Positions 25,564 through 25,699 of a stretch of DNA of 64,000 nt are shown piece by piece; position 1 is the stretch's first letter, and every line of letters starts with the position of its first letter. Both the position numbers and the translations under genes were made by a program. Below the pieces are notes generated by a model. It worked only from the letters and a program-made list of their open reading frames with translations, was not told the origin of the DNA and did no database searches. This stretch comes from Okamejei kenojei (Eukaryota). The DNA is taken from contig CM069152.1 of NCBI GenBank assembly GCA_035221665.1, positions 18,724,001 to 18,788,000 of the forward strand, in the 5' to 3' direction.

Positions 25564-25699
25564 CTTCTTCTTTCGTGTGGCGTGCACAGCCTAAAGTTGT
25601 TGGACAACTTGTTCTATTTGATCTTCCGTTTGTGCACGTCGAGTTGATTGCATTAGTCAAAACAGGGCGGACCACGTGAAGGTTGCAATCTTCCACCCC
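25564..25699 (-). mobile_element. Short non-autonomous retroelement, Vingi/Ingi-like (136 bp)
   Basis: Flanked by 8-bp TSD ACTATGAT (25556-25563) / ACTACGAT (25700-25707). Minus strand starts GGGGTGG and ends ...CGCCACACGAAAGAAGAAG (GAA-type tail). Family assignment is from recalled Vingi features. Confidence 0.75.
25646..25699 (-). ncRNA. Minimal HDV-like self-cleaving ribozyme (predicted)
   Basis: P1 GGGGUGG/CCGCCCU with G1-U wobble, J1/2 AA, P2 GAUUGCA/UGCAAUC, P3 ACC/GGU, L3 UUCACGU, vestigial P4 (UUUUGA), J4/2 CUAA. Confidence 0.75.

Follow-up and report, generated by a model that had tools for sequence, protein, structure and literature searches.

A predicted P4-less HDV-like ribozyme heads a short, internally deleted Vingi-type retroelement of Okamejei kenojei

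A 64,000-nt stretch of the Okamejei kenojei genome, here called the window, carries on its minus strand a 136-bp non-coding retroelement without an open reading frame (25564..25699), whose head had been predicted to fold as a ribozyme of the hepatitis delta virus (HDV) type. The locus raises the question of whether so short a head is a genuine ribozyme and to what kind of element it belongs. Copy searches and comparison with long interspersed elements (LINEs) identify a non-autonomous, internally deleted retroelement of Vingi type, from the younger of two subfamilies. A structural descriptor, a sub-threshold Rfam match, covariation and RNA 5′ ends together point to a 54-nt HDV-like fold without P4 (25646..25699, minus strand), with a predicted cut 5′ of G25699.

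Re-reading the minus strand from 25699 gave the same sequence and helices as the original prediction. P1 joins nt 1–7 (25693..25699) to nt 30–36 (25664–25670) over 7 bp with two wobbles, the expected G1-U36 and a previously overlooked U5-G32. A 2-nt J1/2 (25691–25692) precedes the 5′ strand of P2 (nt 10–16, 25684..25690; partner 25646–25652), which forms seven Watson-Crick pairs. P3 (25671..25683) has 3 bp and a 7-nt L3 (25674–25680), and the one-pair P1.1 links C22 (25678) with G37 (25663); the helices are assigned from the sequence together with pairing across families (see below). The P4 helix is absent, its place being taken by a 6-nt loop (25657..25662) that separates G37 from the candidate catalytic C44 (25656), the first nucleotide of J4/2 (25653..25656), as judged from copy counts and sequence alignment. 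The nested double pseudoknot of P1, P2, P3 and P1.1 is present in HDV order, as are a G1-Y pair, the U...C-G core of L3 and a C-N-R-A J4/2. In the cited part of PMC6326823 the HDV-like descriptor gives J4/2 as C-R-R-A, whereas its second position here (position 45, 25655) is U in the young subfamily and G in the older; this position corresponds to G76, which in the HDV-like structure described there is flipped out to solvent. For another ribozyme, PMC4908430 states in the part cited that a J1/2 of 0–1 nt gives little or no activity and one of 3–7 nt gives more; J1/2 is 2 nt in all five family heads compared below, which eases the concern over an inactive short linker.

A structural descriptor of the HDV fold, written for this analysis and run on both strands, yielded a single match in the window, at 25699, and none in 12,000,012 bases of Markov-1 background. 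On both strands of 1,957,210 retrieved bases it gave 78 matches, 66 of element type (some copies being counted twice) and 12 at LINE 5′ ends. Replacing the catalytic C by A, G or U gave 6, 4 and 0 matches, respectively, all of those for A and G being alternative registers of true-C matches. The original prediction had looked to a descriptor or model search for support: the descriptor singled out the site, while the Rfam search stayed below threshold. The latter placed HDV-F-prausnitzii, a model that includes P4, at exactly 25646–25699 (nt 1–54; 16.2 bits, E 7.1), with this score and another of 11.3 bits both under the curated cut-off of 44, and with E up to 10 it gave no CPEB3 match. Minimum free energy was no better than that of shuffled sequences (z 0.13), a comparison that is uninformative for a pseudoknot. 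With the copy's own upstream flank and downstream body, the probability of P1 falls to about 0.3 in a pseudoknot-free model, and the G37-C44 hairpin that would compete with the fold is expected only rarely (0.02–0.03). We regard it as nearly certain, on the strength of the sequence comparisons, that the HDV-like fold is real, and it is among the smallest of the hepatitis-delta type.

The element is abundant in the 2.76-Gb genome, with at least 6,897 copies recognized by a 34-place core with six positions relaxed, 2,721 exact matches to the 34-nt core and 5,021 to a 19-nt 3′ motif; reversed-sequence controls of the core and motif searches returned none. The copy in the window is matched exactly by at least four others, and words of the element are present in sequencing runs of seven organisms from ten studies. 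Among 30 copies chosen by the 3′ motif alone, 27 reach the G1–G4 run and three are 5′-truncated; the start is fixed at G1, as anticipated for a cleavage-defined end. A target-site duplication (TSD) was detected in 25 of 28 aligned copies, directly at G1 in 19 (one of them spurious, in the truncated copy L084), one base short in five and two short in one. None of the copies with TSDs carries along upstream flank. In the window the TSD (25556..25563 on the tail side, 25700..25707 on the head side) abuts G1 as originally described; it has one mismatch, 7/8 positions being identical, and its 8 bp are fewer than is usual in the family, where lengths run from 6 to 15 bp with 11 the commonest, some of the length being due to overlap with the GAA tail. 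TSDs, a simple-repeat tail and occasional 5′ truncation are the marks of retrotransposition seen.

Young copies are mostly 95–99% alike. The two subfamilies differ at position 8 in J1/2, position 45 in J4/2, the junction and the tail, and the 30 copies divide into 20 younger, seven older and three unassigned. Variation on the scale of the subfamilies comes to four positions, three of which leave the fold intact, namely 8 (J1/2), 45 (J4/2) and 32 (U-A to U-G). The loop in place of P4 contains UUCG in 25 of 28 aligned copies, versus UUUG in the window copy, such that its original reading as UUUUGA is right for this copy and atypical of most. By hand count, C44 is kept in 96 of 100 listed copies, and position 45 in the same set is U in 62, G in 27, A in 10 and C in one. 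A P3 pair is lost through the change U29C in 5/28 aligned and 4/100 listed copies. Separately, at three loci (L137, L138 and L139) another, older repeat holds a fragment from the head and middle of the element in a common flank, followed by a C-rich tract; this arrangement is either a composite family or a duplicated locus.

The origin of the element emerged from an endonuclease-family search, which led to a single-ORF element with apurinic endonuclease (APE) and reverse transcriptase (RT) domains and without RNase H (L166), and from reading the loci found with it. One LINE of about 3.05 kb in the same genome, family F, has nt 1–72 and nt 93–136 in common with the element. A full-length copy of about 3.05 kb with an 8-bp TSD (L281) matches nt 1–72 and 98–136, and both ends are also present in L285 and in L231, the latter ending in nt 93–136, with the stop codon of the ORF among them, and having nt 4–72 as a 5′ inversion. 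An autonomous-type LINE with both termini, which the original prediction had called for, was thereby found. Of 20 retrieved LINE 5′ regions, 11 have 59–72 nt of the head in line with the ORF and one more has nt 1–26; BLAST reached G1–G2 in only two of the 11 heads. In these 11 regions the 54-nt P4-less fold recurs; a short UTR comes after it and then, about 130 nt from G1, an ATG leading into the APE domain. Position 32 in the LINE is A, which makes U5-A32 a standard pair. The presence of the fold in these regions indicates that the minimal form arose in the LINE and that the element is its two ends joined. On these sequence matches, there is very little doubt that the element has a bipartite, LINE-derived origin.

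The remaining parts of the element on the minus strand can be read accordingly against the LINE. Nt 55–72 (25628..25645) are the remainder of its 5′ UTR, as found by comparison of the LINE 5′ regions, and nt 93–136 (25564..25607) are its 3′ end, comprising the final ORF codons, the inherited stop codon (25591–25593), the 3′ UTR and the GAA tail. The junction region between them (nt 73–92, 25608..25627) appears, from the probable origin of its letters, to combine a 5′-UTR-like heptamer, an insertion or duplication specific to the subfamily and, in part, the arm of a 7-bp hairpin (nt 90–96 with 100–106). An 8-bp complement between nt 62–69 in the 5′ part and nt 112–119 in the 3′ part derives on both sides from LINE UTRs.

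The parent LINE matches the Pfam APE and RVT_1 domains, has a C-terminal Cys/His knuckle and gave no RNase H match in the seven pieces scanned; its single ORF was read from such pieces, the copies being broken. In an RT tree of 19 of 26 rows, with several long branches and no named Vingi or Ingi reference, these LINE families split at 100/99 from rows that we take to be Nimb-, CR1- and L2-like, and none of 120 listed database homologues bears a clade name. Vingi, the sister of Ingi, is defined in the cited part of PMC13708176 by a compact single ORF with APE and RT and without RNase H, a layout that the parent LINE shares; the name Vingi-type is given here by architecture. Eight loci of the parent family are old (median 86.9% alike) and broken, with a longest open frame of 414 aa. 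All 14 exact LINE-type 3′ ends of family F have the older tail variant and none the younger variant of the window copy. Two other LINE families, seen like family F only in part, are more uniform, family C at about 98% and family D at 95% versus that median, and the last ~14 nt of family C match those of the older element subfamily, which makes cross-mobilization by family C plausible from the shared sequence. Families A–E were rejected as the parent since none has both ends of the element.

A search by exclusion pattern for a LINE junction beside the ribozyme gave 123 matches; the 30 that were read proved to be deleted, truncated or fragmentary copies. In copies of the parent family, a head that lacks the first 3–12 bases often adjoins a 5′ inversion or reversed internal LINE sequence, as in L231 at 3615–3683 and in the upstream parts of L261, L268, L270 and L278–L280. 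The top 30 matches of the endonuclease-family search belonged to one Nimb-like family without a link to the element. A Nimb-like LINE with an open frame of 1,276 aa (L102, in the G000:C2:28228257 region) belongs to a family that looks young and abundant.

The genome holds five or more additional Vingi-type LINE families, each with a different HDV-like head: family A (L173–L175, L178, L179, L181, L218), B (L182–L190, L212–L215, L251), C (L200, L221, L253), C2 (L209, L237), D (L201–L208) and E (L220). Families A, B, C and D were found by protein similarity, and each begins at G1 of its own HDV-like fold of 65–95 nt. The family B head has a U-A P1.1, a G-C at the first P3 position and a G1-C pair, and that of family D a bulged P2. 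Just upstream of position 363 in L221, an apparent TSD is separated from G1 by a 9-nt partial repeat of the 5′ end of family C. Across five families, these four and that of the element with its parent LINE, 94.4% of 90 cells are paired, a figure that leans high since the five representatives had passed the descriptor, other copies of each family having the same heads. None of 500 shuffles matched this pairing, and slid registers gave 39–47%. The covariation sought by the original prediction is found between families, 12/18 pairs having changed on both sides, and is missing within the element's own family including its parent LINE (0/18). Exchanging strands between families kept all of P1 and P2 in none of 20 swaps. 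A sequence-only alignment of the five heads left G1–G3, C18–C19/G27–G28, U20, C24, G25, C44 and A47 invariant. That the catalytic C, the L3 core and the terminal G1 are kept while the helices differ points to selection on chemistry.

Raw RNA reads of a related organism (C), whose species may differ from that of the window, were mapped on 25500–25770. In the single-cell run X21, a loose end sets in immediately behind 25699 in 1,216 of 3,566 mapped reads; its consensus (agreement 0.78) is a sequence of template-switch-oligo type, presumably a known variant, with exactly its three C and no extra base. In runs X23 (417 reads) and X24 (515 reads), the loose ends at that place are mixed with genomic flanks, and their consensus begins like an oligo of this type (agreements of 0.42 and 0.44); the contig run X19 has no such junction at G1. 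The oligo matched by X23 and X24 is listed in the cited part of PMC8579666, from which that of X21 differs by two letters. According to the cited part of PMC6885630, template switching favours uncapped RNAs starting with G, and capped RNAs mostly add one extra C at the junction, uncapped ones not (~90%). An uncapped RNA starting at the predicted cut is the simplest reading of the X21 junction, although RNA capped at G2, or cut only while the library was being prepared, may look alike in these reads. The X21 reads at the 5′ end are about 3.4 to 1 in sense; the 5′-end signal lies among the loose ends, no site shared by many molecule starts or stops being listed for 25500–25770. Internal oligo-dT priming on the A-rich tail may explain loose ends resembling poly(A) at 25571 and 25574, which are left out of account here. 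In X23, 222 and 132 reads at 25564–25567 have one common flank on the tail side, which suggests one highly expressed host locus in organism C.

These observations suggest the following model. In the element the first ~72 nt of the LINE are joined to its last ~44 nt, as the sequence itself shows. In any polymerase II transcript that crosses a copy in the sense direction, the 54 nt at the head of the element would fold into the nested pseudoknot and, by analogy with known HDV-like ribozymes, cut 5′ of G1 with C44 as the general acid, leaving an RNA with a 5′-OH whose end the compact fold might also shield. A Vingi-type ORF protein acting in trans would then bind the retained 3′ end, and target-primed reverse transcription of the RNA would produce a TSD abutting G1 and a short GAA tail. 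With the whole ribozyme retained in every new insertion, any of them could act as a source once transcribed. The RNA reads are compatible with cleavage freeing the element from read-through transcripts, and the part of the partner protein is a proposal. From our analysis it is highly probable that the family form cleaves and somewhat less so, if still probable, that 5′ ends in cells stem mainly from cleavage; the explanation as a whole, a bipartite LINE derivative with a self-cutting head mobilized in trans, has good odds in our judgment, short of those for cleavage itself.

Other accounts of the head have to be set against this model. It could be mainly an internal promoter starting at +1/+2, with the fold kept for protection or protein binding and cutting secondary. 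Pr77 acts as both promoter and ribozyme in the cited part of PMC3383444, and for R2 a protective role of the template fold, not necessarily of its activity, is proposed in that of PMC11331408; transcripts capped at G2 would yield a seven-C junction as well, and the sense excess in X21 would follow. We nonetheless hold a mainly promoter role to be unlikely, given that five families with differing helices keep the catalytic C, the L3 core and the terminal G1; a dual role as promoter and ribozyme, like that of Pr77 in L1Tc/NARTc, is possible.

The ribozyme might instead function in the parent LINE and be vestigial in the element, the uniform starts reflecting full copying of a short RNA from few loci and the read junctions being library artefacts. 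The lack of two-sided change within the family and the existence of P3-breaking variants such as U29C speak for such a relic, and a 5′ G run can attract the template-switch oligo. Yet annealing inside that run should leave three or four C rather than seven, three of the four variable positions spare the fold, and copies with TSDs bring no upstream flank with them, all of which makes a vestigial head improbable. An ordinary Pol III SINE with a chance HDV-like head would suit the short length, GAA tail, high copy number and sub-threshold Rfam score, but the head is the LINE's own 5′ UTR, the descriptor is silent in the 12-Mb background, and there is no tRNA gene in 25000–26300 and no A- or B-box match, nor a tRNA-type promoter, in the element; we give this account almost no weight. 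The absence of a tRNA or Pol III head had been correctly foreseen; for the element itself, internally deleted LINE of the SIDE/NARTc type is a better name than ribozyme-headed SINE.

Elements of this kind are already known from trypanosomes (NARTc, RIME) and Drosophila (R2 SIDEs), and in its sequence the present one shares their marks, both of its ends matching one autonomous-type LINE and no ORF lying between them. NARTc, RIME and SIDER, derived from the trypanosomatid L1Tc and ingi, are likewise short and bipartite with both ends common to the LINE, and an HDV-like ribozyme cuts just before +1, as predicted here (cited parts of PMC3383444 and PMC4035085). NARTc has 263 nt with a 77-nt head that includes P4, as opposed to 136 nt with a 54-nt P4-less head. 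Unlike NARTc, the element resides in a 2.76-Gb animal genome, has a GAA tail and derives from a LINE without RNase H. R2 SIDEs likewise join a 5′ ribozyme to a LINE 3′ end by internal deletion and move in trans, as is proposed here (cited part of PMC3414825); they are rDNA-specific, rare and dependent on a restriction-like endonuclease, whereas here thousands of copies are dispersed and the parent is of APE type. Non-autonomous derivatives of Vingi-1_EE in the hedgehog are also internal deletions of a Vingi LINE, and the part of PMC5786205 that describes them counts Vingi among clades making bipartite derivatives but leaves it out of its list of clades that start with a ribozyme. Ribozymes of the hammerhead or HDV-like type are employed by some LINEs and SINEs of metazoans (PMC6765202, in the part cited), and the cited part of PMC5753468 has nothing further on ribozymes.

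The fold itself has counterparts in the minimal HDV-like and theta ribozymes (drz-Mtgn, gut phages), which are likewise P4-less, have the catalytic C first in J4/2 and cut before G1. In the cited part of PMC10879173, nearly 99% of P4-less forms are confined to Caudoviricetes phages, many process tRNA 3′ ends, and a search of eukaryotes (human, mouse, protists) reports none; the preprint of that paper likewise assigns them almost entirely to phages. The marks of theta ribozymes, a phage genome and an adjacent tRNA, are absent around this animal repeat, where the P4-less fold instead heads a retroelement. Among vertebrates, the CPEB3 ribozyme of mammals is an HDV-like fold with a one-pair P1.1 and an L3 very similar to the element's; it is single-copy and intronic and has P4. 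Webb (2009) and Ruminski (2011) reportedly found HDV-like ribozymes in repeats of lamprey, lancelet and sea urchin, and some of these repeats could be of the same clade. Our literature search met no report of this family, of a ribozyme in a Vingi-type LINE or of a P4-less ribozyme in an animal retroelement, though Repbase, Dfam, patents or supplements may describe them.

The findings would add the Vingi type, here by prediction, to the LINE groups whose RNA begins with a self-cleaving ribozyme, and move the P4-less HDV fold from phages to an animal retroelement. A natural series for structure-function work is available in five to six related ribozymes, whose P4 regions span 7–45 nt, and in thousands of natural variants, and the 136 nt mark near-minimal cis sequences for mobilization in trans. 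Host pre-mRNAs could be cut by thousands of copies if these are active. A clade-wide ribozyme, a minimal animal fold, base-exact RNA ends and a link to gene-writing platforms make the proposal directly testable. More tentatively, and with the odds against it, HDV-like ribozymes may be a general 5′-end device of Vingi-type LINEs, including the 54-nt P4-less form, and the 136-nt element may have outlived its parent by switching to the younger family C, with more than 6,900 working sites now cutting sense host transcripts and yielding abundant free 5′-OH RNA.

Around the insertion, a scan of 20 of the 43 open frames revealed no host gene. A piece of another common SINE-like repeat, which we take to be HE1-like, lies immediately upstream of the element (25863–26000), and a weak Rfam MIR2118 match within it is due to chance. 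The repeats flanking the element presumably resemble those of sharks and rays. Elsewhere in the window, an open frame on the plus strand (4262–4630) with a homeodomain match (Pfam PF00046, E 7.6e-14) is probably an exon of a homeobox gene, and 33743–34504 on the same strand is a fragment of a Tc1/mariner-type DDE transposase.
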